Positions 698 through 50,841 of a stretch of DNA of 64,000 nt are shown piece by piece. The position numbers and the translations under genes were made by a program. Position 1 is the stretch's first letter, and each line of letters opens with the position of its first letter. The stretch is from Candidatus Woesebacteria bacterium. GTDB lineage: Bacteria > Patescibacteriota > Microgenomatia > UBA1400 > UBA12108. The notes below the pieces were generated by a model, which was not told where the DNA came from, did no database searches, and was given only the letters and a program-made list of their open reading frames with translations. The stretch is taken from assembly GCA_018060845.1 (NCBI GenBank), contig JAGOVG010000002.1, forward strand, positions 23,581 to 87,580, read 5' to 3'.

Positions 698-1584
698 AAA
701 AGACAAAAAAAATCAAACACGCGGCAATATTGATCAACTATTCTGATGCAAAAACTACCGCTGACTGCGTTAACAGTATCAAGGCTTCCAAGGATGCTCC
801 GCACATAATCGTCGTCGATAATGGCAGTAGCGATGAGTGTATTGCAGAACTAAAGTCTCTCTGCCCTAATCTAGACCTAATCCAAGCCGGTAGCAATCTC
901 GGATACTCCGCTGGCAATAATATCGGAATCAAAAAAGCACTGAGGCTGGGCGCGCAGGTCGTCTATATTATCAACAACGATACACTAGTAGACCAGAACC
1001 TTTTCTTTAGAGCTTACCGCTATGTTGCCAACAAGACTCGTATTGCAGGCGCTAAGATTTACTACGCAAAAGGTCATGAATATCACGAGGAGTCTAAGGG
1101 GAAGGGGGATATCCTCTGGTATGCTGGCGGATATTTTGATTATGCAACAGCGACTGCTCGCCACTACGGGATCGATGAGCGCGATCAGTCTCAGTATGAC
1201 AAAATCAGACCTGTTGAGTTTGTAACTGGTTGTTTTATGGCAATTCCCCGAGTAGTGCTAAACAAAATCGGCAACTTTAGCGAGGAATATTTCCTCTATC
1301 TAGAAGATACGGACTATTGCTTGCGCGCACAACAGCGTGGGGTCGAGGTAATGTATAACCCTAATCTCGTGCTATATCATCTCAATGGCGGTAGTACCAA
1401 AGCCGGAAGCAAGTTAGTTGACTATTACATGACCAGAAATCGCTTTTTGATCGCTAAGAGGTACGGGAGCTGGAGACTCAGGTTTGCACTACTTAGGGAG
1501 GGGCTGCGTAACTGGTCCGACCCCACTCGAAGGCGCGCACTAATTGATTACCTGAGTAGTAAGTTGGGTAATCGCAGCCTATGA
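694..1584 (+). CDS. GT2 family glycosyltransferase (rhamnosyl/galactofuranosyl-transferase-like)
   Basis: ATG 694 overlaps the upstream TGA (ATGA). Motifs VVDNGSSDEC, YSAGNNIGIK and ED.DYCLRA are typical of GT2 (GT-A fold, DxD). Confidence 0.75.
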   Translation: MKKTKKIKHAAILINYSDAKTTADCVNSIKASKDAPHIIVVDNGSSDECIAELKSLCPNLDLIQAGSNLGYSAGNNIGIKKALRLGAQVVYIINNDTLVDQNLFFRAYRYVANKTRIAGAKIYYAKGHEYHEESKGKGDILWYAGGYFDYATATARHYGIDERDQSQYDKIRPVEFVTGCFMAIPRVVLNKIGNFSEEYFLYLEDTDYCLRAQQRGVEVMYNPNLVLYHLNGGSTKAGSKLVDYYMTRNRFLIAKRYGSWRLRFALLREGLRNWSDPTRRRALIDYLSSKLGNRSL

Positions 1585-3008
1585 TCAAACTAGATTCAAA
1601 TATTCTAAAAAAGATTACTCTGTTCTTCTTGGCAGTTACTACTATTCTGCTATACCACAACCTCGGGCGGGACTACCTCTATGACTGGGATGAGAGTATC
1701 TATGCTCAACTAGGTGTCGAACAGTCAATAAATACTTTGCTCACTCCTACCTGGAATGGTGAATTATGGTTAGAAAAACCACCACTTATCGCTCACCTGA
1801 CAGCGCTTGGGAATGTGGTTAGTAGTGATGGAGAGCTAGGTGCACGGCTATTTATCCCGATAGCCACACTAGTTACCTTGGTCTCAGTCTATGTGATTGG
1901 TGTTCACATCGGGGGAGCTGTTACTGGCTCGATTGGTACTATGATGCTCATGTATTTTGATCTCTTTATTGGTCGAAGTCGAAGTGTTAATACCGATATC
2001 TTCTTGCTCGCAGGGATAACCCTCGCAGTCGCCCTAATCCTCAAAAATGCCAAAACTTACTTAGTTGCACTCGCTCTCGCACTCGCCATCTTAGCCAAAG
2101 GTCCCGCCGGCATCCTCGCCATTTTTATCATGCTGCCGCTCTTGCTAAGCAAACCAAAAAAATACATTCTACTTTCTACTATCTACTTACTACTCTTCAC
2201 TCTCCCATGGCATCTCTACCAGCTATTCATAAATGGGGCAGATTTTTACACACCATATCTACTAGAGCAAGTGATCAGGCGCGCTACAGTCCCGATCGAG
2301 TTTCATATGGAGTCTCGCTGGTTTTATTTTGTGCACTTATATCGAGATCTGGGTGTTGGAGTGTTGCTTGCGTCAGTACTCGGACTGTTAGCATCACTCA
2401 AAAAAAAGAACTACTTACTAGTATGGTGGGTGGTTTTGCCACTCGCAATTTTTACTATTGCTAAGACTCGGCTATCTTGGTATATCCTGCCAGTATATCC
2501 CGCGATCGCTCTCTCAATCGGTTATATTTTTGAATATTTAACTAGTGGCGTAGCCAAAAAATATCGATGGGCTCTAGTCGGACTTGTATCACTAATTGCC
2601 TTGCAATCACTTTTGCATCTTGGTAAGACTACAGAGGTGAGTAGAGTAAATACCACCTATCCCGACCACATTAAGATCGCACTCACTCTATCCGACTATC
2701 TAGAGCCATCCATCGCGTTCTTGGTGAGCCAGAGCGAGCGAACCGCTGAGGCTATTCTGCCGGATAGTCAGCGGCTCAGCAGCAGCTTCCGCTACGGTGG
2801 TGCACCATCGGTAGTTTTTTATAGTGGTAAAAAAGTTGCGTATTATTACAACTATGATCTTTTTATCAAAGACTTAAACGAAGGTGTTCATGAGCTAGCG
2901 GTAGTCACGATAGGGGATATCGACAAAGTCCCAGACAATTACCGAGAAGTTGGGCGTGAGGGTGCATACTATGCCTACCAGAAAGATGTCTCATATGCTA
3001 AGCGTTAG
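1581..3008 (+). CDS. Polytopic membrane glycosyltransferase, GT-C fold (PMT/ArnT-like, GT39/GT83-type)
   Basis: 475 aa with about 11 predicted TM helices. The first extracytoplasmic loop carries YDWDESIYAQ (D-E motif of PMT/ArnT-type GT-C). ATGA overlap with the upstream gene. Confidence 0.65.
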   Translation: MIKLDSNILKKITLFFLAVTTILLYHNLGRDYLYDWDESIYAQLGVEQSINTLLTPTWNGELWLEKPPLIAHLTALGNVVSSDGELGARLFIPIATLVTLVSVYVIGVHIGGAVTGSIGTMMLMYFDLFIGRSRSVNTDIFLLAGITLAVALILKNAKTYLVALALALAILAKGPAGILAIFIMLPLLLSKPKKYILLSTIYLLLFTLPWHLYQLFINGADFYTPYLLEQVIRRATVPIEFHMESRWFYFVHLYRDLGVGVLLASVLGLLASLKKKNYLLVWWVVLPLAIFTIAKTRLSWYILPVYPAIALSIGYIFEYLTSGVAKKYRWALVGLVSLIALQSLLHLGKTTEVSRVNTTYPDHIKIALTLSDYLEPSIAFLVSQSERTAEAILPDSQRLSSSFRYGGAPSVVFYSGKKVAYYYNYDLFIKDLNEGVHELAVVTIGDIDKVPDNYREVGREGAYYAYQKDVSYAKR

Positions 3009-3774
3009 TACACAAATAGCAAAAGAAGATGATCTATCGGTTTTTGCACGCATGCTGGATAGTGTCCGCTCGGCCGATGAGGTAATTATCTTTAATATGG
3101 AGCGCAAGGATAGTGAAGCACAAAAACTTTTTGGCAAATATCATGCTCGGGTAATTAACATCAAAACCCCGAAAGTTGTCGAAGAGATCAGGGAGCGTCA
3201 GATCAAAGAGTCTAAATCTGATTGGATACTAGTTATGGACTACGACGAGGTAATAACAGCAGGTCTCGCCAAAGAGATTAAAAAAGTGGTAGGAAGTAGT
3301 AATCAAAAGTATGGTGCCTATTACATAACTCGCCGCAACTATTCGCTCGGCTATCCATTAAAGCACGGTGGTTTTGGTGACGATGTAGTTCCTCGCTTAT
3401 TCAATAGATCTGAGTTTATAAGCTGGCCTACAGAGATCCACGGTATGCCAAAAATAAAAGGTGAATTTGGTTATCTAACTAACCCAATGGAACATCACAA
3501 AGATGCGAGCCTCGCACAAATGGTCGCAAAGACCAATAGGTATACGGATGTTGAGGCACACCAGTTTTTTGAGGGCGGAGTAGCTGATGTTACCCAGATC
3601 ACTCTGCTTCGCAAAACTATCATGGAGTTTATCAGGCGTTTTGTCATTAAGGCAGGTTTTCTCGATGGCAAGATTGGCACCATCCAAGCTCTCTATCAGA
3701 GCTACGCCATCTATCTGCGCTACGCCAAACTTTACGAAATCCAAAACAATATGAAAATTGAGCACAACCGATAA
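2986..3774 (+). CDS. GT2 glycosyltransferase, WaaE/KdtX-like
   Basis: DYDEVI, YYITRRNYSLGYPLKHGGFGDDVVPRLFNR. The start is ambiguous: in-frame ATGs at 2971, 2986 and 2995, and the track ORF begins at TTG 2950. It overlaps the end of the upstream gene. Confidence 0.7.
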   Translation: MSHMLSVSTQIAKEDDLSVFARMLDSVRSADEVIIFNMERKDSEAQKLFGKYHARVINIKTPKVVEEIRERQIKESKSDWILVMDYDEVITAGLAKEIKKVVGSSNQKYGAYYITRRNYSLGYPLKHGGFGDDVVPRLFNRSEFISWPTEIHGMPKIKGEFGYLTNPMEHHKDASLAQMVAKTNRYTDVEAHQFFEGGVADVTQITLLRKTIMEFIRRFVIKAGFLDGKIGTIQALYQSYAIYLRYAKLYEIQNNMKIEHNR

Positions 3775-3775
3775 T

Positions 3776-4837
3776 ATGAATAATTCGAAATCCCGCAATG
3801 GCGGGAAGGCTCTTATCGTCTCTCCCTACTTAGACCACTTAGGCGGAGGGGAGCGCTATATGCTCACCTGCGCAAGCTCCCTTGAGTCACTCGGTTACGA
3901 AGTGAGTATTGGCTGGGATAACCTGGAGTCTATCAGTAACATCTGTCGCATGCTCGCCATTGATCTAAAAAATCCTGTCTTAGTCCCACATATTCGAGAG
4001 CTATACCACAGCCGCAATCCCCTCGCTATGTTTATGGCTACCCGCCCTTACGACGTTGTGGTCTACCTCTCTGACGGCTCTATCCCCCTGCTAGGTGGCC
4101 GGGTCAATCTGCTTCATATGCAGGTGCCATTTCACAATGTGAATGGATCTAACTGGAAGAACAAACTCAAACTAAAAACTATACATCGAGTTATAGTCAA
4201 TTCGAACTTTACGAAGAAAATAGTCGACTCAGAATATGGCATTGATTCATTTGTCCTCTACCCACCAGTCAGTAGCAATAATAAAGTAGGTGCCAAAGAA
4301 AAAATAATTCTCTCTGTCGGTCGCTTTGAACCTTCGCTCAACGTCAAAAAACAGGATGTCCTGATCAATGCCTTCAAAAAAATCTCATCAACTCTATCAG
4401 ATTGGAAGCTCATACTAGTCGGCGGGAGCACCGAAGATAGCTGGATCAAAGAGTTAAATGAACAGGCTGCCGGCTACAACATCGATATACTGCCAAACGT
4501 AGATAGTACTACTCTAGTAGATCTGTACGGTAAAGCTAGTATCTATTGGCACGCTGCCGGATACGGCGTAGACGAAGCTAGGAGTCCCGAGCTAGTAGAG
4601 CATTTTGGCATTAGTACAGTCGAGGCCATCGCCGCGCGTGTCCTCCCACTAGTCTACCGAGCCGGCGGGCAGACCGAGATAGTCAAGCACGATGATCTGC
4701 TCTGGGAGACTATTGATGAGTTAGTTAACAAAACAATTAACCTTACAAATAAAAACTTTAGTCACTACGAGAGCGTGCTCAAAATTGATAGCTTCTCCGA
4801 AGAGGCATTTAAGAACACTCTAAAAACCTTGTTATGA
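3776..4837 (+). CDS. GT4 family glycosyltransferase (GT-B fold)
   Basis: C-terminal E..G(I)STVEAIAARVLPLVYRAGGQTEIV block is typical of GT4. The first ATG is 3776, immediately after the upstream TAA; the track start at 3758 is a TTG. Confidence 0.7.
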   Translation: MNNSKSRNGGKALIVSPYLDHLGGGERYMLTCASSLESLGYEVSIGWDNLESISNICRMLAIDLKNPVLVPHIRELYHSRNPLAMFMATRPYDVVVYLSDGSIPLLGGRVNLLHMQVPFHNVNGSNWKNKLKLKTIHRVIVNSNFTKKIVDSEYGIDSFVLYPPVSSNNKVGAKEKIILSVGRFEPSLNVKKQDVLINAFKKISSTLSDWKLILVGGSTEDSWIKELNEQAAGYNIDILPNVDSTTLVDLYGKASIYWHAAGYGVDEARSPELVEHFGISTVEAIAARVLPLVYRAGGQTEIVKHDDLLWETIDELVNKTINLTNKNFSHYESVLKIDSFSEEAFKNTLKTLL

Positions 4838-6180
4838 AAATAATATTAAATTACGCCCTACCAATCGGCATCATCATCCTCGCGGCGTTTCTGCGCTTCA
4901 ATAACCTAAGCTACCGTGCACCCTTTGACTGGGATCAAAATCGCGACTACCAAGAAGTAGCAAAGATTGCTTCAGGCAAGCTAACTCTCATTGGTCCTGT
5001 TGCCCGCGGCGAGGGTGGGTTTTTTCTCGGCCCGCTTTATTACTACCTCCTCACTCCATCATTTGTCATAACGGGAGAGGATCCAATTGCACTCCCAGTT
5101 TCTAGCATCTTGTTAGATATTCTTGCAATTGGGCTCATTCTCTACTTAGGCAAGTATCTAGGTAATGCCAAATTTGGCTACCTTTTTTCACTCTTCTACG
5201 CTCTCTCGCCGAGCATGGTAGATGCATCTCTCGTCTCATGGAATGTTGCACTCTTGCCTCTCTGGGTCATCGCGATGCTACTCTTTTTGATCAAGCCAAA
5301 ATACAAAAGTATTGACCTCTTACTTGGTGGACTATTGCTCGGATCTAGCTGGCATATCCATGCGGCACTGATCCCGCTCGCACCTATCCTCCTCCTAGCT
5401 CGCTCCCGCTCTATCTCACTATTTTCTATTAAGTCCTTATGGTTGGTCACAGGCTACCTTCTCATGCTCTCGCCTCTCATCCTCTTTGATATCAGACACG
5501 TGGGGTTGCAGTCTAACTTAATCTCGAGCATGGTGACTGCTCAAGGTGAATCACGCGCTGCACTCCCTCTACTACTTGATTCTGTTTTGTCTCGCTTTGG
5601 CAAAAATCTCTCTAGTATGTTTGGAGGGCCAGGTGATCTTAATCTTTGGTTAGGTATCGTGGGATTATCTACATCTCTAGTTGCGGCCATCCGTGGTAAT
5701 GTGTTGTTGAGATTGTCAGCTCTCGCTGTTATTGCCAACATTACTCTTGTTATCCTCTTGGGATCGGTTGGCTTCCCAGAGTACTATCTCGCAACTGCGA
5801 CGATCGGCACACTACTAATCATTACTTACATCTTGTCTACTCACTGGCTAGGGATAGTCATAGCACTTTCTCTCTCACTTTTTTTACTCGCCACAAATAG
5901 CGCGACCGTTGGTCCATTCACGCTCGGTCACAAACTAGATCTTGTGTCTGTTGTTACAGAAGATAAGAGTCTTCATAAAGTCCTCTATGACCTTCCATAT
6001 GGGCGAGATAGCGGTCTGCCAGTTCTACTTAAACGTAGCGGTGCCCATACAAGTAGCGAGGGCAGAGTAATCTATATGATTAGCGACAAAACCGACCCCT
6101 CGCTATTTATAGAGGGTGAGATCGCGAGCGAGGTAGGCTGGTACGGCGGATTTCGATTAGTAAAGAGGGAGTTAAGATAG
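4834..6180 (+). CDS. Polytopic membrane protein, GT-C-like glycosyltransferase candidate
   Basis: 448 aa and highly hydrophobic. N-proximal loop FDWDQNRDYQEV resembles the PMT/ArnT loop-1 motif. ATGA overlap. Confidence 0.5.
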   Translation: MKIILNYALPIGIIILAAFLRFNNLSYRAPFDWDQNRDYQEVAKIASGKLTLIGPVARGEGGFFLGPLYYYLLTPSFVITGEDPIALPVSSILLDILAIGLILYLGKYLGNAKFGYLFSLFYALSPSMVDASLVSWNVALLPLWVIAMLLFLIKPKYKSIDLLLGGLLLGSSWHIHAALIPLAPILLLARSRSISLFSIKSLWLVTGYLLMLSPLILFDIRHVGLQSNLISSMVTAQGESRAALPLLLDSVLSRFGKNLSSMFGGPGDLNLWLGIVGLSTSLVAAIRGNVLLRLSALAVIANITLVILLGSVGFPEYYLATATIGTLLIITYILSTHWLGIVIALSLSLFLLATNSATVGPFTLGHKLDLVSVVTEDKSLHKVLYDLPYGRDSGLPVLLKRSGAHTSSEGRVIYMISDKTDPSLFIEGEIASEVGWYGGFRLVKRELR

Positions 6181-6184
6181 ATAT

Positions 6185-7096
6185 ATGAAGAAACAATTGA
6201 GTAAGTCCATCACTGTCGCCATTCCCTCTTGGAATAGTGCCAAACAACTAAAGAAAAATTTGCCTTCGGTTATCAACGCAGCCAAAAGGGTAAATGCCGA
6301 GATAATCATTGTCGATGATGCAAGCTCCGATGACTCAGTCGCTATAATCAAAGGAGACTGGGGTTATCCAATCAAGCTTGTACAAAATTCGACCAACCAG
6401 GGATACGGCGAGACCATTAATCGTGCGGTTGCTCTCGCCCAGTCAGAGCTTGTGGTGATCTTAAATACCGACGTCTCGCTAAGCGATGACTGTATCGAAA
6501 AATCACTTCCCTACTTTGTAGATCCATCGGTCTTTGCCTTAGGTTTAAACTCAGGCGAGGGGTATATGCGAGTCAAATGGGATCGCGGACTCTTTCATCA
6601 TTTTAAAGGGGTAACTGGGGTAGAAGATCCTGGCGTTACTCCAAGTAGTCTCTGGGCTTCAGGAGGTCAGAGTGTTGTCAGACGGTCTTATTGGCTAGAG
6701 CTCGGGGGAATGTGTCCACTCTACAAGCCATTTTACTGGGAAGATACAGACCTCGGCTACGCAGCCTGGAAGAGGGGATACACAATCCTCTGGGGTCGGG
6801 ATTGTCACTGTGTTCATGATCACGAATCTAGCGTAATCGCAGGGAGCTTTGGTAAAAAAGATGTGATGGATGTGGCTCAGCGTAATCAGTTCCTCTTTAT
6901 CTGGAAGAATATTAGTGACGTAGGTCTCTTGCTAACTCATCTACTCTATTTACCAATCTATCTGATTCGCTATCCGAGGACCGTCATATCTGCTCTACGC
7001 TATCTACCTACTGCACTTAAATATCGCAAACTTCAGTCACAGTACTGGACACGGCTTGATGAGGATATACTATCAATATGGCGAGACTCACAATGA
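6185..7096 (+). CDS. GT2 family glycosyltransferase
   Basis: VAIPSWNSAKQL, IIVDDASSDDS, YWEDTDLGYAAWKRG. Confidence 0.7.
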   Translation: MKKQLSKSITVAIPSWNSAKQLKKNLPSVINAAKRVNAEIIIVDDASSDDSVAIIKGDWGYPIKLVQNSTNQGYGETINRAVALAQSELVVILNTDVSLSDDCIEKSLPYFVDPSVFALGLNSGEGYMRVKWDRGLFHHFKGVTGVEDPGVTPSSLWASGGQSVVRRSYWLELGGMCPLYKPFYWEDTDLGYAAWKRGYTILWGRDCHCVHDHESSVIAGSFGKKDVMDVAQRNQFLFIWKNISDVGLLLTHLLYLPIYLIRYPRTVISALRYLPTALKYRKLQSQYWTRLDEDILSIWRDSQ

Positions 7097-8730
7097 TCAT
7101 TAGTTTTATCAAGAAACACTTCTTAATCCTGACCCTTGCTCTGGCACTACTCTTGCGTGTAGTCAACCTATCAACTAATCCTCCTGAGCTAAACTGGGAC
7201 GAGATCAGCATGGGCTACACTGCCTACTCACTACTAGAGACTGGTCGAGACGAATGGGGTGAGCCTTGGCCCATTCTCTTCCGCTCGTACGGCGAATGGA
7301 AATCACCTGTCTATATCTACCTCCTCATTCCGTTTATCAAAATTTTTGGCCTTACCGAGTGGGGCGTCAGGTTGCCGGCCGCTCTCTTTGGAGTACTCAC
7401 AGTTTATCTTACATATGTTCTAGCTATCAGGCTCTATTCGCGTCGGGTAGGCCTACTCGCAGCATTATTTCTTGCTGTCTCACCATGGCACCTCATGCTC
7501 TCTCGTCCTGCGTTTGAGGCAGGGGTCGCGCTCGCTCTCATCCTCGCCGGCCTGCTATTTTTCTTAAAAAGCATCGAAAAAAACCCTTTAACCTTTAACC
7601 TTTACGCTTTAATCTCAGCGACAGCGTTTGGTCTCTCACTCCACACCTACCATAGTGCCAAAATCGTGGTACCTCTCCTTATCCTCTACATAGGTTGGGT
7701 ATACAGAGCTCGCTTGAGTCTCAAATCACTCATTGCCCCAATCCTAGTTCTTTCTATTTTTGCATATCCAATAGCAAGCGACGTAGTAACCGGCAAGACT
7801 CAGGCACGCTACAATCAGGTAGGCATCACAACCGATGCCGAGCTGACCGAGCGCTTTTTCCGCTATAGAAACACCGCTCCATTTGGTGAGCTAGGCAACA
7901 AAATAGTTTTTAATAAATATACTTTTATCCTCTCTAAGGGGTTCTCTAACTGGACATCTTACCTCTCCCCACATTTTCTCCTGGGTTCTAGTAGTATCAG
8001 AGCGCAGCATAGTATCCCATTCCGCGGCGTACTATATTTTGTTGAGTTTGGGCTCGCAGTCTATGGATTATTTTTACTCAAAAAGTCCTCCTCGCCACTG
8101 CGATACCTCCCAATCGTGCTCATCCTGGTCGGTTTTATCCCACCAGCACTAACCAAAGATATTTATCATGTGCTCCGTAGCATCTTGACCCTGCCTTGGT
8201 GGCAAGTACTCGCGGCCTTAGGACTCAGCGAGCTATTATCCAATAAAAAGTATCAAAAACTTTCTACTTTTACTTTGCTACTTTTAGCTTGCGAAGTAGT
8301 AATCTTTGTCTTTATCTACTTCGCCTGGTACCCCAATGCCTTTGCCAGGGACTGGCAGTATGGACACAAAGCTATCGCCGCATGGGTTCAGGCTAACGAG
8401 AGTAAGTATAAGCAGGTCTATATGACCAAAGCATATGGAGAACCACAGCTCTTCCTCGCTTTTTACAACAAATGGGATCCTAACTGGTATCAAGAAGAGA
8501 ACAAAAAGTTAATCGAATACGAATCCCGTGGTTACCCGTGGCTAGATCAGCTACCAGAGTATAGTCTCGGCAAATACACTTTTAGAGATATCAACTGGCC
8601 CGTCGATAACGGGAAGAACGAAATGGTCTTTATTGGCAAAGGTGACGACTTTTGGCTCGATACCCCCCACCCACTAAGTATTAACTTCCCCGATGGGACT
8701 GCTGCATTTAGAGTTTCTGAGGGCAAATAG
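7078..8730 (+). CDS. Polytopic membrane glycosyltransferase, GT-C fold (PMT/ArnT-like)
   Basis: 550 aa and multi-TM. Loop-1 motif LNWDEISMGYTAYSL. Overlaps the upstream gene by 19 nt. Confidence 0.65.
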   Translation: MARLTMIISFIKKHFLILTLALALLLRVVNLSTNPPELNWDEISMGYTAYSLLETGRDEWGEPWPILFRSYGEWKSPVYIYLLIPFIKIFGLTEWGVRLPAALFGVLTVYLTYVLAIRLYSRRVGLLAALFLAVSPWHLMLSRPAFEAGVALALILAGLLFFLKSIEKNPLTFNLYALISATAFGLSLHTYHSAKIVVPLLILYIGWVYRARLSLKSLIAPILVLSIFAYPIASDVVTGKTQARYNQVGITTDAELTERFFRYRNTAPFGELGNKIVFNKYTFILSKGFSNWTSYLSPHFLLGSSSIRAQHSIPFRGVLYFVEFGLAVYGLFLLKKSSSPLRYLPIVLILVGFIPPALTKDIYHVLRSILTLPWWQVLAALGLSELLSNKKYQKLSTFTLLLLACEVVIFVFIYFAWYPNAFARDWQYGHKAIAAWVQANESKYKQVYMTKAYGEPQLFLAFYNKWDPNWYQEENKKLIEYESRGYPWLDQLPEYSLGKYTFRDINWPVDNGKNEMVFIGKGDDFWLDTPHPLSINFPDGTAAFRVSEGK

Positions 8731-35640: not shown

Positions 35641-35645
35641 TTACT

Positions 35646-36371: not shown

Positions 36372-36388
36372 TGATAAACTAACTGCAT

Positions 36389-37501: not shown

Positions 37502-37548
37502 AAAATCCCTCTACTTGCAGTCTTTTCTCAATTTGCTATTCTTTATTT

Positions 37549-38148: not shown

Positions 38149-38168
38149 AGGTGTGAGACAATAGAGAT

Positions 38169-41300: not shown

Positions 41301-42174
41301 GTTGAACACCAACAACAAATCTAATAGCGTGAAATCCCGACGCACGTCGGGACCAGTCGCCTCAGCCATCCTCGCTGCCTACAATTGTGACAAGAGTATA
41401 GTCCCAGCTATCTCCTCCCTCCTGACACAAACTATGGAGATCGAGATTATAGTAGTGGACGATGGTAGTACCGATAAGACCAGTGAGATACTCAAGCAGT
41501 TCCCAAGCTTAATCTGTCTCAATCAGTCGCACCAGGGACCAGCTAAGGCTCGCAACCTAGGGGCAGCGCATACGAACTCCGAGATTCTGCTCTTTGTTGA
41601 TGCCGATATGACCTTCGCTCCAGACTACGTCGAGACATTGATCAAGCCAATATTAAATAATGAAGCTAAGGGTACATACTCAGTCAAAGAGCTGGTCGCC
41701 AACTGGGAGAGTCCGCTTGCTCGTTGCTGGAATATTCAAGAAGGCTGGGCAGACACACTTCGCTTCCCCCCCAATCCTCCAAAATATGGCACAGACTATC
41801 GTGCGATCCTCAAATCCGAGTTTGATAGGGTAGGTGGGTTTGACAACATTGGATACACCGATACTTGGAGTCTGTTTAACAAGTTAGGAGTCAGACCTCT
41901 ATCAACCCAGGCAGTTTGCTACCACAAAAACCCAGATAGTATGGCCGCAGTCTATCGTCAAGCTCGTTGGGCAGCTAAGCGTCCCTACAAACATGGATAC
42001 CTAGGGTTCCTCTATGCACTTATTCGCACTTCATTGCCAGTTTCGGTCTGTATTGGCTTGTACAAATCAATCAGGCATCAAAACCTTCACTTCTTTTTTT
42101 TCAAAATAGTATATGACTTCGGTCGTTTTGTTGGTATCCTCGAGATGCTCTCTACTGGTAAACTAAGTAAATAG
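41284..42174 (+). CDS. GT2 family glycosyltransferase
   Basis: IIVVDDGSTDKTSEIL, FVDADM (DxD). Confidence 0.7.
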   Translation: MTSSSKLNTNNKSNSVKSRRTSGPVASAILAAYNCDKSIVPAISSLLTQTMEIEIIVVDDGSTDKTSEILKQFPSLICLNQSHQGPAKARNLGAAHTNSEILLFVDADMTFAPDYVETLIKPILNNEAKGTYSVKELVANWESPLARCWNIQEGWADTLRFPPNPPKYGTDYRAILKSEFDRVGGFDNIGYTDTWSLFNKLGVRPLSTQAVCYHKNPDSMAAVYRQARWAAKRPYKHGYLGFLYALIRTSLPVSVCIGLYKSIRHQNLHFFFFKIVYDFGRFVGILEMLSTGKLSK

Positions 42175-42175
42175 T

Positions 42176-43522: not shown

Positions 43523-44594
43523 CGTCTCTCAGATGGCTTATTCGGGTACTGGCGTAGGTCGCTATACCTTTGAGCTAGTCAAAGCTCTACTAAGTTTACC
43601 CTCTAGGCACGAGTTCATCCTCTGGGCTGGGGTGCGCAAACAGCGCTTTTATTTTGAGGCACTCCAAAAAACTGCGCCTTGGAATAAAGCGACCTGGGTC
43701 TATTCTCACCTTTCACCTAAGCTAGCGGGAGTGCTCTTTAATTATTCTCCACTGCATCTAGAGTATCTTAGCGGTGAGACAGATCTCATCCATCTCTCAG
43801 ACTGGACTGCTCCTGTTACTCGTGTACCAACAGTCACGACCATTCATGACCTGGCTTACGCCAAATATCCAGAGACTGTTCATCCTCTTATTAGACACAC
43901 TCAATCACTTAGACTCTCTCGGATCGTCAAACACGGCAACCATATTATTGCAGACTCACTGAGTACAAAAAATGATCTCATCGAAAAATATCAACTACTA
44001 GACTCACAAATAGACGTTGTTTATCCAGGTCTAAGTCAGGAATATTTCCCTCAATCAGAGTTAGAAATTGAACGAGTGAAAACTAAATATAACTTGCCTA
44101 ATAAATTTGTCCTTAGCCTTGGTACTCAGGAACCACGCAAAAATCTAGAACGTCTTATCCAAGCTACAGCTGGTCTGTCGATCCCTCTCGTCATCGCTGG
44201 TAAATACGGTTGGGGCAAAAAGATCGAAAACCCGTCACATGTAACTGTGCTCGGTTTTGTAGACGAAGCTGATCTACCTGCACTCTATAGTAGTGCGACG
44301 GTTTTTTGCTACCCATCACTATATGAAGGGTTTGGTTTCCCCGTGCTCGAAGCTATGGCCTGCGGCACCCCGGTCGTGACCAGTAATATTAGCTCACTCC
44401 CCGAGGTGACGGGTGAGGCAGCTGTCTTAGTAGACCCATTAAATATAGAGTCTATTAGGTCTGGTATTGAGCAAGTAATAGATTCAAGTGAAAACATGAC
44501 CACAAAAGGTATTCGACATGCCAAAATGTTTAGTTGGGAAGTAACTGCTAGACAAGTTATGACAATCTATGAAAAGCTAGGTAATAAGAAATAG
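43506..44594 (+). CDS. GT4 family glycosyltransferase
   Basis: MKITIDVSQ..GVGRYT N-terminus. EGFGFPVLEAMACGTPVVTSNISSLPEV. Confidence 0.8.
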   Translation: MKITIDVSQMAYSGTGVGRYTFELVKALLSLPSRHEFILWAGVRKQRFYFEALQKTAPWNKATWVYSHLSPKLAGVLFNYSPLHLEYLSGETDLIHLSDWTAPVTRVPTVTTIHDLAYAKYPETVHPLIRHTQSLRLSRIVKHGNHIIADSLSTKNDLIEKYQLLDSQIDVVYPGLSQEYFPQSELEIERVKTKYNLPNKFVLSLGTQEPRKNLERLIQATAGLSIPLVIAGKYGWGKKIENPSHVTVLGFVDEADLPALYSSATVFCYPSLYEGFGFPVLEAMACGTPVVTSNISSLPEVTGEAAVLVDPLNIESIRSGIEQVIDSSENMTTKGIRHAKMFSWEVTARQVMTIYEKLGNKK

Positions 44595-44601
44595 GTACTT
44601 T

Positions 44602-45711
44602 ATGACTCAAAAAATTGGTATCGATGTTAACGAGGCAAACGTTGGTAGTAGGGTAGGTACTGGACAATATACTTATCATATCCTCAAGAGATTAAAAGAC
44701 ATTTCACCTCAGACTGATTTTCATCTTTACCACCGTGATCGACTGGTCTCGGATATGCCCACAGAGGGTTCCAACTGGCATTACCATCATGTTGGCCCAG
44801 CACGTGTATGGCTCAGGCTAGGTCTCCCACTAAATCTCTTTATCACCCGCGCCCACTATGACTCGTTCTGGTCACCCGCCCACAATGCTCCATACTATGT
44901 TGGTAGTCCGTCGGTAGTCACGATTCATGACCTCGCGTATGAGTACTTTCCTGATTTATTTCTTAAGAGCGATCTCTACAAACTAAAAAACTGGACTCGT
45001 ACAGCAGTCAAGGCTGCGGCTCGTGTGATCGCAGTTTCTCAGGCCACCAAAGACGATCTGGTTAAGCTGTATGGTACCGACCCCAACAAAATCACAGTCA
45101 TTCACAATGGCTACGACTCAGATATTTTTAATACTAAAACAAAAATCAAATCTTCACATCTAGATAACTTTAACCTTGTCCCTTTCAACTATCTTCTCTT
45201 CCTCGGTACCATCCAGCCTCGCAAAAACGCTATCAAGCTAGTTCAAGCTTTTCGACTCCTCAAAGAAAAGGGGTACAAAGGCAAGTTGGTTTTGGCCGGC
45301 AAAATAGGATGGATGTCAGAAGAGTCGCTGCAGGTTATTAAAAACTCGCAGGATGCCAAAGATATTGTCATGACAGACTACGTTAGCGACGAGACGCGCC
45401 TCGCACTATATCGTGGCGCCGACGTCTATGTCCTACCGTCTCTTTACGAAGGGTTTGGAGTGCCAGCAATCGAAGCAATGGGTTGCGGAGCACCGGTTGC
45501 AGTCTCAAACAATAGCAGTCTCCCCGAAGTAGTTGGAGATGCTGGGGTATTGTTTGACGAGCGCGACCCAGCAGATATCTCAAGGGCAATTATGGAGCTC
45601 AAAAAAGACCGTGATACCTGGTCCAAAAAATCTCTAAATCGAGCCAAACAATTCTCCTGGGACAAATGTGCCAAGGAAACTCTCGATGTATTACTAGGAA
45701 AACAAATATGA
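44602..45711 (+). CDS. GT4 family glycosyltransferase
   Basis: EGFGVPAIEAMGCGAPVAVSNNSSLPEV. Paralog of the 43506 gene. Confidence 0.8.
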   Translation: MTQKIGIDVNEANVGSRVGTGQYTYHILKRLKDISPQTDFHLYHRDRLVSDMPTEGSNWHYHHVGPARVWLRLGLPLNLFITRAHYDSFWSPAHNAPYYVGSPSVVTIHDLAYEYFPDLFLKSDLYKLKNWTRTAVKAAARVIAVSQATKDDLVKLYGTDPNKITVIHNGYDSDIFNTKTKIKSSHLDNFNLVPFNYLLFLGTIQPRKNAIKLVQAFRLLKEKGYKGKLVLAGKIGWMSEESLQVIKNSQDAKDIVMTDYVSDETRLALYRGADVYVLPSLYEGFGVPAIEAMGCGAPVAVSNNSSLPEVVGDAGVLFDERDPADISRAIMELKKDRDTWSKKSLNRAKQFSWDKCAKETLDVLLGKQI

Positions 45712-46214
45712 TTAACTGCACATTTGAAAACGGCAACGTTGCACTCCCAGGTATTAGGCACGTCACTACCTCTAACATTATTTTGAATGATAAGAATCAG
45801 GTAATAATGTGTTTGCGAGGTTCAAAAAATGGCATACCAATACTAGAGAGCGGAAAATGGGGACTACTAGGTGGCTTTGTAGATCGTGACGAAACTGTCT
45901 CTGAATCAGTTAGACGTGAGGTAATGGAAGAATCTGGCTGGACGATTGATGATGTATCCTTATTCTGCATTAACGATAACCCCAACCGTCCCAAAGAAGA
46001 TCGCCAGAATATCGATTTTGTCTATATTGCCCGGGTAGTTAGTCAAAAAGAAGTTATCGACGAAGAAGTCAGAGAACTCCGCTGGTTTGATCTAGACAAG
46101 TTGCCGCCCGATGACCAGATCGCCTTTGACCACTCACTCGCACTAAAGCTATACAAAAAGCATCTAAAAAATCCTCTCGTCCTACCCATCTTTGGGTATG
46201 GTGCGCTAGAATAG
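45708..46214 (+). CDS. NUDIX hydrolase (nucleotide-sugar/GDP-mannose hydrolase-like)
   Basis: GGFVDRDETVSESVRREVMEESG is a Nudix box (G-x5-E-x7-REuxEExGu). ATG 45708 forms ATGA with the upstream stop. The track start at 45666 lies inside the upstream gene. Confidence 0.7.
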   Translation: MINCTFENGNVALPGIRHVTTSNIILNDKNQVIMCLRGSKNGIPILESGKWGLLGGFVDRDETVSESVRREVMEESGWTIDDVSLFCINDNPNRPKEDRQNIDFVYIARVVSQKEVIDEEVRELRWFDLDKLPPDDQIAFDHSLALKLYKKHLKNPLVLPIFGYGALE

Positions 46215-46218
46215 ACAT

Positions 46219-46827
46219 ATGAACTTCCCCCTCAAAGACAAACACGGCAAGAGTTATACCTGGAGCGAGGCCTTTTTTGGCAAGGCAATCCCGAGACTCG
46301 AGTCGTATCTCCTCGACTTTACACTCATGTGCTTGGATGTAACTACTCACATCCCCAGCCATACTCTCCGTAACTTTATCTGGCGCAGTGTCGGGATTAA
46401 GATGGGTGCTAACTCCACACTCCATACAGGCGTCAGGGTATACGACCCTCGCAATATCAAGATCGGGGAGGGGACTATCATCGGCCGCGGTGTCTTTATC
46501 GATGGCAGAGATATGGTAACTATCGGCAGTCACACCAGCATCGCGAGCGAGGTCATGATCTATAGCAGTGAACATGATCTAGCTGCTACTGATTTTCGCG
46601 CAGTTAGTGAGCCAGTCAAAATCGGCGACTACGTCTTTATCGGCCCACGAGCGATCATCCTCCCAGGTGTCAGTATCGCTGATCGCGCTGTTGTTGGAGC
46701 TGGAGCAGTCGTCACCAAAGATGTCATGGAGGGCGAGATAGTAGGTGGTGTCCCTGCAAAACTAATTGGAGAGCGCAAACTAAAGAAAGCCAACTATCGC
46801 CTAGGTCGCTTTAAACTATTCCAATGA
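46219..46827 (+). CDS. Sugar O-acetyltransferase, left-handed beta-helix (hexapeptide-repeat) family (WbbJ/WcaF/LacA-like)
   Basis: Repeating [LIV]-G-x-x-x-x hexapeptides (IGEGTIIGRGVFIDG, IGDYVFIGPRAIILPGVSIADRAVVGAGAVV). Confidence 0.75.
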   Translation: MNFPLKDKHGKSYTWSEAFFGKAIPRLESYLLDFTLMCLDVTTHIPSHTLRNFIWRSVGIKMGANSTLHTGVRVYDPRNIKIGEGTIIGRGVFIDGRDMVTIGSHTSIASEVMIYSSEHDLAATDFRAVSEPVKIGDYVFIGPRAIILPGVSIADRAVVGAGAVVTKDVMEGEIVGGVPAKLIGERKLKKANYRLGRFKLFQ

Positions 46828-47756
46828 ACAAATTAGTCTCAATCATTATTGTCTCCTACAACACAGCTAATCTGACTCAAAAATGCGTAAAACATGCACT
46901 TGCGAGCTCGGGAATAGATGCAGGCCAGCTCGAAATAATCGTCGTCGATAATAATAGTAGCGACAATACCATCCAGCTTCTCAAAAAATCTTATCCAGAT
47001 ATAAAAATAATTAGTAGCCCCAAAAATCTCGGCTTTGGTGGCGGCAACAACCTCGGTGCTAAACATGCTACAGGGGAGTATGTTCTCCTCCTCAATACCG
47101 ACGCCTTCCTCAATCCGGGTTCACTCTCCGAACTCGTAACCGTGTTGGACAAAAACAAATCTATCCTAGCTGTCGCCCCCAAATTGACGTACGAAGATGG
47201 TCAAATACAGCAGTCAGTCGGTTACTTTCCAACACTTGCTAGGGTTGTGGGCTGGATGTGGGGACTAGACAAGTTACCAGGGATCAAGCTCCTATTCCCG
47301 ACTCCATACCACTTTTATGACGTATCCAAATATAACAAAGATCTCTCCCCAGATTGGCTAATGGGTGCCTGTGTCCTTGTGCGTAAAGACGCATATCTCA
47401 GTGTGGCTGGGTTCGATGAGAAAATCTTTATGTACGGCGAAGAAGTCGAGCTATTTTACCGCTTAAAAAAGAAGCATCCTGATCAATTTGTGCGTCTTGT
47501 CACGTCTGTATCTGTTACCCACCTAGGCTCATATAGCTCAAATGCCGCAAATACTTCTAGACTATTGTCAGAGCTCGACGGTATTATCACTTTTTATAAT
47601 CTGCATTTCCCGAGCCTTACATGGGTGATTAAATGGGTCATTAATCTCGGGGTAATCATGCGGATTATTATCTTTAGTCTAATCCCAGCAAAGCGGAGTA
47701 GTGCAGGGCAATACCTTAGCTATCTTGGACAAGCCAAGCAGAGCCGGGTACAATAA
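46824..47756 (+). CDS. GT2 family glycosyltransferase
   Basis: VSIIIVSYNTANL, IIVVDNNSSDNT, FGGGNNLGAK, LLNTDAF. Confidence 0.75.
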   Translation: MNKLVSIIIVSYNTANLTQKCVKHALASSGIDAGQLEIIVVDNNSSDNTIQLLKKSYPDIKIISSPKNLGFGGGNNLGAKHATGEYVLLLNTDAFLNPGSLSELVTVLDKNKSILAVAPKLTYEDGQIQQSVGYFPTLARVVGWMWGLDKLPGIKLLFPTPYHFYDVSKYNKDLSPDWLMGACVLVRKDAYLSVAGFDEKIFMYGEEVELFYRLKKKHPDQFVRLVTSVSVTHLGSYSSNAANTSRLLSELDGIITFYNLHFPSLTWVIKWVINLGVIMRIIIFSLIPAKRSSAGQYLSYLGQAKQSRVQ

Positions 47757-47761: not shown

Positions 47762-49426
47762 ATGCGGCGCATCTTAGCCTGGTTAGACAACAATCTCCTT
47801 ACACTCCTGACTGGTTTTTTGATTGTTTTTATTCCACTATATCCAAAGATCCCGATGGCCGAGCTCATCCAGGGTTATATCGTGCGCATGCGACTCGAAG
47901 ATTTAGTAGTTATGGCAACGAGTATACTCTGGCTTGTCCAGCTCCTGAGGCGCCGGGTAAGTTTGCCTAAAAATTACCTCACCGTCACGATCCTCGCGTA
48001 TCTTGGTTTTGCGCTCTTATCTGTCCTCTCGTCCCTCTTTATTACCGAATCAACTCCTCTAGAGAAAGCGCATGTTCTCAAGCTAATCCTCCATTACTTT
48101 AGGCGTATCGAGTATTTTGCTCTATTCTTTATTACCTATAGCGCGATCAGGACCAAAAAAGATCTAAATCTATTCTTAAAAGTCGCTCTTATCACAACTG
48201 TTGGTATCGTGCTCTACGGGATCGGTCAAAAATACTTTTACTTTCCCGCATTCTCTACCATGAACAGGGAGTTTAGCAAAGGTGTGAGACTTTATCTCCA
48301 GCCCAATACTCGGCTCTTTAGTACCTTTGGTGGTCACTATGACCTAGCTGGGTACTTAACCATCGCCTTGAGTTTCGTCCTCCCCGCCGCTTATTTGGCC
48401 AAGCAAAAACTCGCGAAGTTTGGCTTCTATACTCTCTCTGTGATCGCCTACTGGTGTTTGGTCTTAACTACCTCACGTACCTCATTCATTGGCTATCTTG
48501 TAGGCACCACTATTATTTGTTATCTATTAGTCAAATATCGTGGCTGGTGGTGGAGCATACGGCACTACATCCTCACTATGTTTATGAGTCTGCTAATCAT
48601 GTTTAGCTTTAGTACGCTCCTTGAGCGCTTTACCCAGGTTATTCCTGACCAAAAAACCCGTGATACTATCCTCACTCTCCAAAAAATAATCAATCAGCCA
48701 TTTGTCAGTGAGCCTCAAGGTAAAGATACAGTTGCAGAATTGCCTAGTCTCTTCGCGTTTATTTTTAACAACAAACAACTCAAAACCATTGATCTAACCG
48801 ATGCCGAAAAAACTCAGCTCGATATAGTCGCCTCTAGTTCCGATATGCCACCAAGTCCAGTCAAGCCTACACCGACCCCTCGCTCTGATCTCCCGACCGA
48901 TGTAAGCGATGAGTCTGAGGCTATTAGAGTCCAAACCGCAGAAGATGAGGGGCGGGAGTATACAGGACCACAATATAGCGCCAACGCCCTCAAATACGGA
49001 CTATCCATGGGTATTAGACTAGACGTTCTCTGGCCTAACGCCATCCGAGGTTTTATGACCAACCCACTCCTCGGTACCGGGTATGCGACACTGGTTAAGA
49101 GCAATGTAGGTGAGTTTACTTATGCCGAGAGTACAGACAATGACTATCTACGAATGCTGGGGGAGACTGGGATACTAGGTACTATCGCCTTCCTCTCAAC
49201 TATCTATCTAGTAATCAAATATAGCTACCAAATACTCAAAACAAATAATGACAAGGTAGACCTCCTGGCGCTCGGCGCAATCGGGGCCACTGTCGCACTC
49301 CTAGTGACCGCTACCTACATCGACATTTTTGAGAGCAGCAAAGTAGCCTATACGTACTGGATGCTAGCCGGCATGGTAGCTTACCGCTACGACAACTTAG
49401 CGAGTGTTAAGGATAAAAAGAAATGA
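47762..49426 (+). CDS. O-antigen ligase/polymerase-like (Wzy_C domain) membrane protein with Pro-rich periplasmic insert
   Basis: 554 aa, multi-TM. LTTSRTSFIGYLVG resembles the Wzy_C core. Insert DMPPSPVKPTPTPRSDLPTD. Confidence 0.5.
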   Translation: MRRILAWLDNNLLTLLTGFLIVFIPLYPKIPMAELIQGYIVRMRLEDLVVMATSILWLVQLLRRRVSLPKNYLTVTILAYLGFALLSVLSSLFITESTPLEKAHVLKLILHYFRRIEYFALFFITYSAIRTKKDLNLFLKVALITTVGIVLYGIGQKYFYFPAFSTMNREFSKGVRLYLQPNTRLFSTFGGHYDLAGYLTIALSFVLPAAYLAKQKLAKFGFYTLSVIAYWCLVLTTSRTSFIGYLVGTTIICYLLVKYRGWWWSIRHYILTMFMSLLIMFSFSTLLERFTQVIPDQKTRDTILTLQKIINQPFVSEPQGKDTVAELPSLFAFIFNNKQLKTIDLTDAEKTQLDIVASSSDMPPSPVKPTPTPRSDLPTDVSDESEAIRVQTAEDEGREYTGPQYSANALKYGLSMGIRLDVLWPNAIRGFMTNPLLGTGYATLVKSNVGEFTYAESTDNDYLRMLGETGILGTIAFLSTIYLVIKYSYQILKTNNDKVDLLALGAIGATVALLVTATYIDIFESSKVAYTYWMLAGMVAYRYDNLASVKDKKK

Positions 49427-50841
49427 AAAAATTTAACTTAATTATAATCTTCGTCATCATGGCACTCGGGGCTGCACTCCGACTATACCGACTAGACGCC
49501 CCTCTAGCCGACTGGCATAGTTGGCGACAGACTGATACAGCTAGCGTCGCCCGGGAATATGTAAAAAATGGTATAGACCTAATGCACCCCACTTACCATG
49601 ATCTTAGTAGCATCCCATCGGGGTTAGATAATCCAAATGGCTACCGCTTTGTTGAGTTCCCGATCATAAGTGCTCTCCATGCTACACTCGCCAAAAACTA
49701 TCCTGCACTCAGTCTTGTAGAGTGGGGTAGATTTCTCTCAGTGATAGCTTCTTCGATCTCAATAGGCTTGATCTATCTAATCATGAAGACCGTTAGTGGC
49801 AACTTAGCTGCCATGGTTGCAGCCCTGGTCTATGCCACACTCCCTTACAATATTTTTTATGGTCGTGTCATCCTACCCGAGCCACATCTTGTCTTATTTA
49901 TGCTTACTGCCCTGTATGCCTTTATTCGCTATTACGAAACGGGCAAAATAATCTCTCTCATTTTCTACACTATCACCATGACCCTAGCGGTACTTATGAA
50001 ACCGACAGCACTAGTAGTAGCGATCCCAATCGCGCTTTATGGACTATTTGGAACTAAAGTTAATTTGAAGAGGTTGGGAGTAGTTGCCTTAGTGAGTGCT
50101 CTTTCAGTCTTGCCTTATGCATGGTGGCGCAGCTACGTGGCTAGCTATCCCGCTGGTATCCCCGCTAACGCTTGGCTATTTAATGGTAATGGGATTAGGT
50201 TCAAAGGAGCCTGGCTCCGCTGGCTCTTTGGCGATCGCATCGGTCGCCTAATCATGGGCTACTGGGGTATGATCCCGCTTGGTTTTGGGCTGTTGGCCAT
50301 AGGTCAAAAAAAGTCTGAGACCACGATTGTTGGCGGCCTCGCACTCGCTAGTCTCATATATATGACTGTTATCGCAACTGGCAATGTTCAGCACGATTAC
50401 TATCAGATCCAGATCATCCCGAGCTTGGCCATGCTGATCGGGGTCGGTGTTAGCTACGTCTATACTCTTCGCAAAACATTATTATCAAAGATAACTTTAA
50501 CCTTTTTACTTGTCCCTTGTTACTTAATTGCTCTCGCTCTCGGTTGGTACGAAGTCAGGGGTTACTTTAATATCAATAACCCAGCCATCGTGGCTGCAGG
50601 AGAGCGGATCGATGCAATCACAAATGCCGATGCCAAAGTCATCGCTCCTTACATGGGCGATACAGCATTTCTTTTTCAGACAAACCGGACTGGCTGGCCG
50701 ATCGGTGGGGATATAGATCTAAAGATAAAATCAGGTGCTAGTTATTATGTAACCACGACTCGGGACGCCGAATACCAGGAGCTAAAAAAGAAATACACTT
50801 TAGTCGAAGAAACCGATCAGTACAGCATAATTAAGCTATGA
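49423..50841 (+). CDS. Polytopic membrane glycosyltransferase, GT-C fold (ArnT-like, GT83/GT39-type)
   Basis: 472 aa. DWHSWRQTDTASVAREY loop. About 11 TM helices. ATGA overlap. Confidence 0.6.
   Translation: MKKFNLIIIFVIMALGAALRLYRLDAPLADWHSWRQTDTASVAREYVKNGIDLMHPTYHDLSSIPSGLDNPNGYRFVEFPIISALHATLAKNYPALSLVEWGRFLSVIASSISIGLIYLIMKTVSGNLAAMVAALVYATLPYNIFYGRVILPEPHLVLFMLTALYAFIRYYETGKIISLIFYTITMTLAVLMKPTALVVAIPIALYGLFGTKVNLKRLGVVALVSALSVLPYAWWRSYVASYPAGIPANAWLFNGNGIRFKGAWLRWLFGDRIGRLIMGYWGMIPLGFGLLAIGQKKSETTIVGGLALASLIYMTVIATGNVQHDYYQIQIIPSLAMLIGVGVSYVYTLRKTLLSKITLTFLLVPCYLIALALGWYEVRGYFNINNPAIVAAGERIDAITNADAKVIAPYMGDTAFLFQTNRTGWPIGGDIDLKIKSGASYYVTTTRDAEYQELKKKYTLVEETDQYSIIKL

Follow-up and report, generated by a model that had tools for sequence, protein, structure and literature searches.

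How many glycosylation steps can a minimal bacterium run outside its membrane? Bacteria of the Candidate Phyla Radiation (CPR), Microgenomates among them, are ultra-small and uncultured, with genomes of about 1 Mb; they are believed to lead a life attached to other cells, and their cell envelope is, to our knowledge, almost uncharacterized. Here we analyze a stretch of 64,000 nucleotides from a Candidatus Woesebacteria bacterium (contig JAGOVG010000002.1, positions 23,581 to 87,580; hereafter the window) that provides a natural test case for this question. A preliminary description of the window had proposed an expansion of at least 11 membrane glycosyltransferases of the GT-C type, likened to protein mannosyltransferases (PMT) and to ArnT. 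Our analysis predicts 13 membrane-embedded GT-C glycosyltransferases of at least eight distinct families in one 57-kb single-strand locus, which is an unusually high density. A literature search found no description of such a GT-C-rich locus, or of a glycosyltransferase expansion in CPR/Patescibacteria, which is not proof of novelty.

Nearly every gene in the window lies on the + strand, as do all the features given below unless stated otherwise. The array proper spans bases 1 to 57414 and contains 53 closely packed genes, all on that strand, with the packing of an operon: 49 of the 52 gene junctions are overlaps or gaps of at most 25 nt. The 13 GT-C genes total 19.8 kb, or 34% of the 57.4-kb array. 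Genes are named here by their start coordinate in the window (7078 for 7078..8730), syntenic loci by L numbers and homologous proteins by P numbers. The 11 open reading frames (ORFs) of the preliminary description are all present on the + strand with the ends reported for them, each quoted motif occurs verbatim just after the first transmembrane helix, and for all 11 a GT-C-type identity is backed by a Pfam match, by similarity to a paralogue or profile, by what close homologues match or by a structural model. The count of at least 11 stands but is an underestimate, with 11033-12697 and 23972-25267 bringing the total to 13.

Five of the proteins exceed the Pfam gathering score of PMT_2, of PMT or of both, and the PMT domain itself (PF02366) is matched at that level in 7078, 17294 and 49423. 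These five are 1581..3008 (GT-C no. 1 along the window, PMT_2 family; PMT_2 38.9 bits against a cut-off of 26.1; first-loop motif (D/N)WDE, here YDWDESIY), 7078..8730 (no. 3, PMT_2/PMT family; PMT_2 52.4 and PMT 40.9 bits; NWDE, here LNWDEISMGY), 17294..18919 (no. 8; PMT_2 28.6 and PMT 25.3 bits; YGDE, here YGDEVALGY), 42176..43522 (no. 12, PMT_2 family; PMT_2 48.9 bits; LWLDE, here LWLDEAIEAL) and 49423..50841 (no. 13, PMT_2/PMT family; PMT_2 49.8 and PMT 30.1 bits; DWHSWRQxDTASVA). All-against-all BLASTP and hhalign comparisons recover one recognizable paralogue group, with 7078 as its hub. Besides 17294, it comprises 13703..15475 (no. 6; PMT 18.4 bits, below cut-off; BLASTP to 7078 E 4e-17, hhalign 99.7%; HDE, here LSHDEVDV) and 15483..17291 (no. 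7; no Pfam match; BLASTP to 7078 E 5e-17, hhalign 99.7%; LHIDEVSF). At its edge stand 4834..6180, a distant member (no. 2; PMT_2 21.2 bits, below cut-off; hhalign 95.1%; DWDQNRDY), and, weakly, 42176.

The closest pair within this group, 7078 and 17294, is 33% identical (E 9e-62), and in a neighbor-joining tree each paralogue forms a monophyletic group with the orthologues found at the same position in other genomes. Recent in-locus duplication, which the preliminary description had raised, is ruled out by identities of at most 33% together with this grouping; because the genes group with their positional orthologues, the duplications must be ancient and predate the divergence of these genomes. 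The terms "expansion" and "paralogs" do not fit the set as a whole, since only 4834, 7078, 13703, 15483, 17294 and, weakly, 42176 are detectably related. The other GT-C proteins form separate deep families: DUF2079, DUF2142-like, PTPS_related-like, other PMT_2 lineages and an orphan family lacking a Pfam model. Thin-profile hhalign found links only among the 7078 group, 4834 and 42176, and deeper profiles joined 31917 and 23972 at 72-83% probability.

The DUF2079 protein, 20700..22079 (no. 9), matches its family (PF09852) at 147.7 bits against a cut-off of 28.2, over profile positions 2-444 of 459; we take DUF2079 to be a member of the GT-C clan. The DUF2142-like protein, 31917..33476 (no. 11; first-loop motif PFExPDEQxH, here IPDEQSHF), is assigned through its homologues, of which there are at least 155. 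Those 40-46% identical to it carry DUF2142 (PF09913) and/or PMT_2 (PF13231), as exemplified by P0060 (44% identical; DUF2142 92 bits, full length) and P0061 (PMT_2 38 bits); the protein itself has no DUF2142 match even at E <= 10 and, like 8732 and 15483, no Pfam match. A 35-sequence profile of 31917 aligns with the PMT_2 core of the 7078 family at 83% hhalign probability (E 9e-6). In 23972..25267 (no. 10), a membrane-only protein, the motif YWPVxDWDA follows an N-terminal extension of about three extra helices. Its family comprises 494 representative clusters, in which the DWD-containing motif is invariant, and 22 of 56 members have a PMT_2 match. Finally, 11033..12697 (no. 5), PTPS_related/YfhO-like, has eight predicted transmembrane helices with a GT-C-like spacing. 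It matches neither PTPS_related nor YfhO (PF10131, PF09586) itself; many of its 60-85%-identical homologues carry PF10131 (for example P0188, 62% identical, at 38.4 bits; cut-off 26.4), and one distant homologue is named YfhO. PTPS_related has been placed in the GT-C clan CL0111 (PMC7801869).

The orphan family is represented by 8732..10222 (no. 4; first-loop motif FVDE(D/E)DN, here VHFVDEDD). This family contains only 52 clusters, none with a Pfam domain, and the protein yielded no Pfam, NCBIfam or PDB sequence match and no sequence link to any other GT-C family in the window, whether thin or deep profiles were used. Its AlphaFold model (predicted local distance difference test score 93.6) nevertheless resolves the assignment at the level of fold: the top 23 Foldseek matches in the PDB are all GT-C proteins, namely STT3, ALG9, AftA, ArnT (TMq 0.55), PglB, AftB, AftD, Emb and Pmt. 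Two of the 13 proteins were modeled, 8732-10222 among them; both have the GT-C fold, with GT-C proteins only among the top matches, and show some 11-14 helices. By a crude hydropathy scan, every one of the 13 has 5-10 hydrophobic segments. PDB sequence searches with 7078, with 20700 and with two profiles labeled A1 and A3 gave no GT-C match, and fold comparison alone succeeded. With respect to the families named in the preliminary description, PMT/PMT_2 stands for five proteins and DUF2079 for 20700, and a direct DUF2142 match is missing for 31917. At least two GT-C families, the 8732 and the 23972 types, have no family model of their own, and the locus thus adds two GT-C families that current family libraries miss.

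Translation starts were considered for three of these genes. Longer ORFs are possible for 8732, 15483 and 17294, from upstream starts at 8693, 15417 and 17186. The starts at 8732 and 17294 agree exactly with the gene calls in a syntenic relative (496 and 541 aa), and that at 15483 lies within 2 aa of the relative's call (602 aa here against 600). A further membrane protein, 33490-34617 (+; 375 aa), has no family match, presents a first transmembrane helix, next a loop that includes GNIDDPELY and after it about six more transmembrane helices, and is 83% identical in L002. It may be a small 14th GT-C.

The first loop makes a catalytic role of these proteins plausible. The quoted motifs follow immediately on the first hydrophobic helix, at 20-65 residues from the N-terminus, and conservation was checked for 1581, 4834, 7078, 8732, 13703, 15483, 17294, 23972, 31917, 42176 and 49423. 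Acidic residues of the motif are conserved in every orthologue set checked, at identities down to 25-45%. The WDE core of 1581 is invariant in seven orthologues, with the first Asp replaced by Asn in the most distant one; the motifs of 4834 and 7078 are invariant in seven and nine orthologues, that of 13703 is conserved in eight, and those of 15483 and 17294 are invariant in their orthologues. In 8732, D34 is invariant and E35 nearly so; 31917 has invariant F24, E25, P27, D28, E29 and H32; and the LWLDE of 42176 is conserved in its orthologues. The D-E pair to which the preliminary description had drawn attention is absent from 49423, which has two invariant Asp residues instead (D30 and D38 in 22 sequences, the window protein and 21 orthologues). 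These conserved residues are predicted to sit in the first extracytoplasmic loop, where the catalytic residues of GT-C enzymes lie.

The array is also widely syntenic. Positional orthologues 26-87% identical to the window proteins occur, in conserved gene order, in many Microgenomates/Woesebacteria genomes and metagenome contigs, and the records that hold close homologues or syntenic loci are named Candidatus Woesebacteria, Candidatus Microgenomates, Patescibacteria group and ACD "uncultured bacterium". The left block (694-20676) keeps its order in at least eight genomes: it is colinear in L003, L004, L005, L006, L007, L009 and L014, a 964,590-bp Joint Genome Institute (JGI) contig, with orthologues some 40-90% identical, and partly colinear in L011 and L012, where identities are lower. 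The middle block (22081-43522) is colinear with L002, a 160-kb JGI contig, and the right block (42176-60205) is colinear in at least 20 metagenome contigs. Contigs 97-99% identical (P0001, P0053 and P0173) occur in groundwater or wastewater samples. The records of L003, L006, L007 and L010 are titled "uncultured Pseudomonadales bacterium" despite their Woesebacteria/Microgenomates-like gene content, and these titles are probably mislabeled or placeholders.

As the preliminary description had proposed, the GT-C genes lie in a glycan-biosynthesis locus, with glycosyltransferases of families GT2 and GT4, a phosphoglycosyl transferase, Wzx, Wzy_C and sugar-nucleotide genes around them. The core of a Wzx/Wzy pathway is present: a small polyprenyl-phosphate phosphoglycosyl transferase of the initiating type (56755..57414; Bac_transf 205 bits, EPS_sugtrans 263.8 bits), a Wzx-type (MOP) flippase (38169..39446; Polysacc_synt 83.2 bits) and a Wzy_C-domain protein of the O-antigen polymerase/ligase family (47762..49426; Wzy_C 51.3 bits against a cut-off of 31.7), which is 59-96% identical across 18 contigs. 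The context totals 10 GT2 genes plus one weak candidate and 10 GT4 genes.

Adjacent to the 7078 group lies a putative donor module. The first of its two genes, 18916..19572, encodes a soluble GT2 that, by its PDB and NCBIfam matches, resembles the polyprenyl-phosphate-sugar synthases PpgS, GacI, AglJ and DPMS. Its best PDB match is dolichol-phosphate-mannose synthase (5mlz, E 2e-10, residues 1-189), followed by ArnC and GtrB, and its full-length NCBIfam matches to AglJ (108 bits) and PpgS (104.8 bits) fall below the equivalog cut-offs of 325 and 370. The second, 19563..19898, encodes a small DUF2304 membrane protein (58.1 bits against a cut-off of 25.5), a putative partner of the GacJ/Rv3632 type. 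GacJ and Rv3632, both DUF2304 proteins, bind to their respective synthases, GacI and PpgS, and stimulate them; the GacI product is used by the GT-C enzyme GacL, and a Wzx-type flippase role has been proposed for GacK (10.1101/180810). The DUF2304 activator of such a GacI/J/K/L-type system is thus found here, and a Wzx is present, as proposed for GacK. We infer that 18916 is the donor-making enzyme, and the lipid-linked donors envisaged in the preliminary description would fit this pair. We rejected the possibility that every GT-C is paired with a neighboring polyprenyl-phosphate-sugar synthase: only 18916 is synthase-like, and the other GT2s give generic matches.

Taken together, these data are best read as a conserved supercluster for a cell-envelope glycan, at least 57 kb long, in which a glycan would be assembled on a lipid carrier in the cytoplasm, flipped and then elaborated extracytoplasmically by the GT-Cs; we assign this reading a probability of roughly 0.6. 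The phosphoglycosyl transferase 56755 would start the glycan on polyprenyl phosphate at the cytoplasmic face, and about 20 soluble GT2 and GT4 enzymes would extend it; a ManC-like enzyme, a UDP-GlcNAc 2-epimerase, epimerase/dehydratases, an acyltransferase and three methyltransferases would supply or modify the nucleotide sugars that they use. Wzx would export the lipid-linked unit, which the Wzy_C protein would polymerize or ligate. In parallel, 18916 and its DUF2304 partner 19563 would make a polyprenyl-monophosphate sugar that, once flipped, and possibly together with donors made elsewhere in the genome, would be used by the 13 GT-Cs, each adding a particular residue or linkage on the external side of the membrane. 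What the data show directly are the gene families, the GT-C fold of two proteins, the conserved acidic residues of the first loop, the dense packing and the synteny; how the steps follow one another, which donors and which acceptor (wall polysaccharide, lipoglycan and/or glycoprotein) are used, and whether one product or several result are inferences.

Several observations weigh against this scheme. One clearly synthase-like GT2 in the window faces 13 GT-Cs, which leaves most donors unaccounted for. The Pfam scans of the window ORFs contain no Wzz/PCP chain-length regulator (no Wzz or GNVR match) to accompany the initiating enzyme, Wzx and Wzy_C, and there is no GtrA-type small flippase, with no GtrA-like ORF in any intergenic space. 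Matches to the ArnT, PpgS, AglJ and Agl23 equivalogs are all far below their cut-offs, so that no specificity can be assigned. The DUF2079 protein (20700) is linked to the other families neither by thin-profile hhalign nor by PDB sequence search, and its GT-C status derives from the Pfam clan membership of its family. Lastly, we know of no cultured organism in this lineage and of no glycan chemistry for it.

A more specific version of the scheme holds that the main envelope glycopolymer is built largely outside the membrane by a 13-step GT-C assembly line, encoded in one conserved operon-like array and including the 8732- and 23972-type families, which would be the bacterial equivalent of mycobacterial arabinogalactan assembly or of the lumenal ALG series of the endoplasmic reticulum; we put this forward tentatively, as a possibility rather than an expectation. 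The high GT-C density does suggest that much of the surface glycan is built outside the cell membrane. The retention of an array of at least 57 kb, equivalent to about 6% of a relative's 0.96-Mb contig and one third of it GT-C genes, speaks for an elaborate surface glycan that is completed outside the membrane and has a central place in the life of these bacteria, be it in attachment, protection or phage recognition. For biochemistry, the locus offers 13 syntenic, well-conserved GT-Cs and one predicted donor-synthase pair.

The acceptor is the point on which the foremost alternative turns. The GT-Cs could be mainly protein glycosyltransferases, acting as PMT-like O-glycosylation or oligosaccharyltransferase (OST)-like enzymes that decorate an S-layer, pilins or anchored adhesins, and not mainly a polysaccharide. 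Several of them match PMT/PMT_2, and their structural neighbors include STT3, AglB, PglB and Pmt proteins. The locus itself encodes a protein that might serve as such a surface acceptor, 36389-37501 (+): 370 aa long and without family match, it has an N-terminal transmembrane anchor and a linker of about 60 aa rich in Pro, Ser and Thr (..SPSPSPTP). Its C-terminal domain carries six N-x-S/T sequons, a density of 2.6 per 100 aa where the window averages 0.59. This gene was, however, not found in the syntenic relative L002, where the GT-Cs are conserved; structural matches to ArnT, Aft, Emb and ALG, which act on lipid or glycan acceptors, are equally strong; and the phosphoglycosyl transferase, Wzx, Wzy_C and some 20 soluble glycosyltransferases point to a large glycan. 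Neither PMT_4TMC nor the STT3/AglB C-terminal domain is found in any of the proteins, and PMT_4TMC and MIR gave no match at E <= 0.01 in the ten proteins scanned. We therefore regard predominant protein glycosylation as unlikely. The label "PMT/ArnT-like" of the preliminary description is too narrow: lacking PMT_4TMC, the locus proteins should not be filed as GT39 PMTs, and none attains an ArnT equivalog score. The best ArnT (GT83) score, that of 1581, is 33.6 bits against an equivalog cut-off of 567; no ArnA, ArnB, ArnD or other enzyme of the 4-amino-4-deoxy-L-arabinose (Ara4N) pathway turned up in the Pfam and NCBIfam scans, and the window has no lipid A genes.

A second alternative arises from the differences among relatives. 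The array might be a set of alternative, strain-variable decorators, in the manner of Gtr serotype conversion, that generates antigen diversity against phage or host recognition while few of the enzymes are active in any one cell. Gene content does vary: the 8732 gene is absent from L005 and L006, the DUF2079 gene (20700) is present in L003 and L004 and absent from L002, L006, L007 and L009, and L014 carries one additional gene of 369 aa. Identity between the Wzx at 38169 and the gene in the same position in L002 is only 36%, and GC content is 0.37-0.41 at about 14-36 kb as opposed to 0.44-0.49 in the flanks; the low-GC middle and the divergent Wzx suggest cassette exchange in mid-locus. Most GT-Cs are nonetheless fixed in position and order across genomes, at the orthologue identities given above. 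A search for phase-variation repeats detected neither homopolymer runs of at least 8-9 nt nor significant tandem repeats, and the Pfam scans revealed no gene of a mobile element or phage, all of which makes a decorator array decidedly improbable. That many of the GT-C-like proteins are instead polymerases, ligases, flippase-associated factors or scaffolds of Wzx/Wzy-type pathways and not monosaccharide transferases, as weak matches of 7078, 42176 and 49423 to the NCBIfam "flippase activity-associated protein Agl23", the GT-C fold of the non-catalytic PIG-U/GAB1 and the scarcity of donor synthases in the locus might suggest, is very hard to reconcile with Agl23 scores of 24-41 bits against a cut-off of 126 and with acidic residues conserved at the GT-C catalytic positions in every family examined.

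Under the favored reading of a glycan supercluster, the systems that appear closest in logic are the mycobacterial arabinogalactan/lipoarabinomannan machinery and the multi-component glycosylation systems of Gram-positive bacteria. In mycobacteria and corynebacteria (EmbA/B/C, AftA-D, MptA-C, PimE, Rv3779), many GT-Cs likewise build one envelope heteropolymer from polyprenyl-phosphate sugars, extracytoplasmically; the donor pair PpgS and Rv3632 has a putative counterpart in this locus, and AftA, AftB, AftD, Emb and PimE are among the structural neighbors of the locus GT-Cs, which have no Emb, Aft or GT87 Pfam match. The mycobacterial GT-C genes are scattered over a 4.4-Mb genome, whereas the 13 described here share one orientation within a single 57-kb array, where GT2 and GT4 genes are interspersed among them and Wzx and Wzy_C are also present, in a lineage in which a relative has a contig of about 0.96 Mb. 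The lumenal pathway for lipid-linked oligosaccharides of the endoplasmic reticulum and of archaea (ALG3, 9, 12, 6, 8, 10 and STT3/AglB) also runs distinct GT-Cs in series on polyprenyl-phosphate sugars, after a cytoplasmic phase and flipping. ALG3, ALG6, ALG9, ALG12, STT3 and AglB are top structural matches, at the level of fold only (8-14% identity); unlike that pathway, the locus belongs to a bacterium, and it yielded neither an OST-type C-terminal domain nor evidence of transfer to Asn.

Gram-positive systems employ one to few GT-Cs per polymer. Compared with them, the locus has 13 GT-Cs but one recognizable synthase, and no small flippase of the GtrA/GtcA type. It shares with these systems (GacI/GacJ/GacL; CsbB/GtcA/YfhO; the lactococcal and streptococcal rhamnose-containing cell wall polysaccharides with DUF2142) members that homologues link to DUF2142 and to YfhO/PTPS_related. 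The locus would match their logic, which combines a GT2 polyprenyl-phosphate-sugar synthase, with or without a DUF2304 activator, a flippase and a GT-C that transfers the sugar to a wall polymer (10.1101/180810; PMC8035078, PMC11127046), and DUF2142 genes have been found in rgp loci (PMC9746298).

The remaining genes of the array are as follows. At the left edge, 1..697 is the C-terminal part of a GT2 with a DGDE motif, truncated by the window and without an in-frame stop from base 2; its orthologue in L001 and L014 is a 300-aa GT2, and in relatives a further GT2 and a Wzx flippase lie upstream of it. With the first ORF open at the window edge and more genes upstream in relatives, the locus continues upstream and exceeds 57 kb. 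Among the left-block GT-Cs lie the GT2 genes 694..1584 (rhamnosyltransferase-like; Glycos_transf_2 49 bits; TIGR01556 75.9 bits, below cut-off), 6185..7096 (Glycos_transf_2 75.1 bits; generic GT2 matches in the PDB; one C-terminal hydrophobic helix near residue 243), 10237..11046 (Glycos_transf_2 83.2 bits) and 19900..20676 (Glycos_transf_2 108.4 bits), and the GT4 genes 3758..4837 (Glycos_transf_1 75.6 bits) and 12649..13722 (Glycos_transf_1 88.5 bits).

Further along, Pfam matches identify NAD epimerase/dehydratases (starts 22081 and 34657), a UDP-GlcNAc 2-epimerase (27056), three methyltransferases (26317, 30333 and 31198), GT4s (25254, 28105, 40236, 43506 and 44602, with 28105 a fusion), GT2s (39406, 41284 and 46824), a NUDIX protein (45666), a hexapeptide acyltransferase (46219) and an EEP phosphatase (35646). 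The accessory genes of 22081..47756 are colinear with L002 and with metagenome contigs. The fusion protein 28105-30342 (+) has 745 aa and joins a GT4 to a C-terminal (alpha/alpha)6-barrel-like domain with weak matches to the C5-epimerase C-terminus, pectate lyase and GH127; a fusion 76% identical to it occurs in L002. Just upstream of the 23972 GT-C, 23022-23975 (+) encodes 317 aa without family match, in which at least three N-terminal transmembrane helices precede a soluble domain of about 150 aa at the C-terminus, and is 81% identical in L002 and 27% in L007.

The right block, assigned by Pfam and synteny, contains GT4 50838, GT2 52050, GT4 53455 and GT4 54608 within 50838..55702, followed by a mannose-1-phosphate guanylyltransferase-like (ManC-like) gene at 55680..56786 (NTP_transferase 84.4 bits plus ManC_GMP_beta-helix). 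It also holds the sole large gap of the array, 502 nt at 52952-53455, where a promoter and terminator search gave counts no different from those of shuffled sequence. The only sizeable minus-strand ORF in a gap, 52954-53481 (-), fills this interval; it encodes 175 aa from a TTG start, has no Pfam match and is probably not a gene.

Downstream of the array, a fixed order of genes follows: a DUF4012 membrane protein (57357-59372), an unusually short RecO of 170 aa (59418-59930, +), a ProRS-like class II aminoacyl-tRNA synthetase (60205-61590, +), an anchored 266-aa protein without family match and, in the region 62960-64000 (+), MraZ and RsmH, the start of a division and cell wall (dcw)-type cluster. 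The order of DUF4012, RecO and the aminoacyl-tRNA synthetase is kept in many metagenome contigs.

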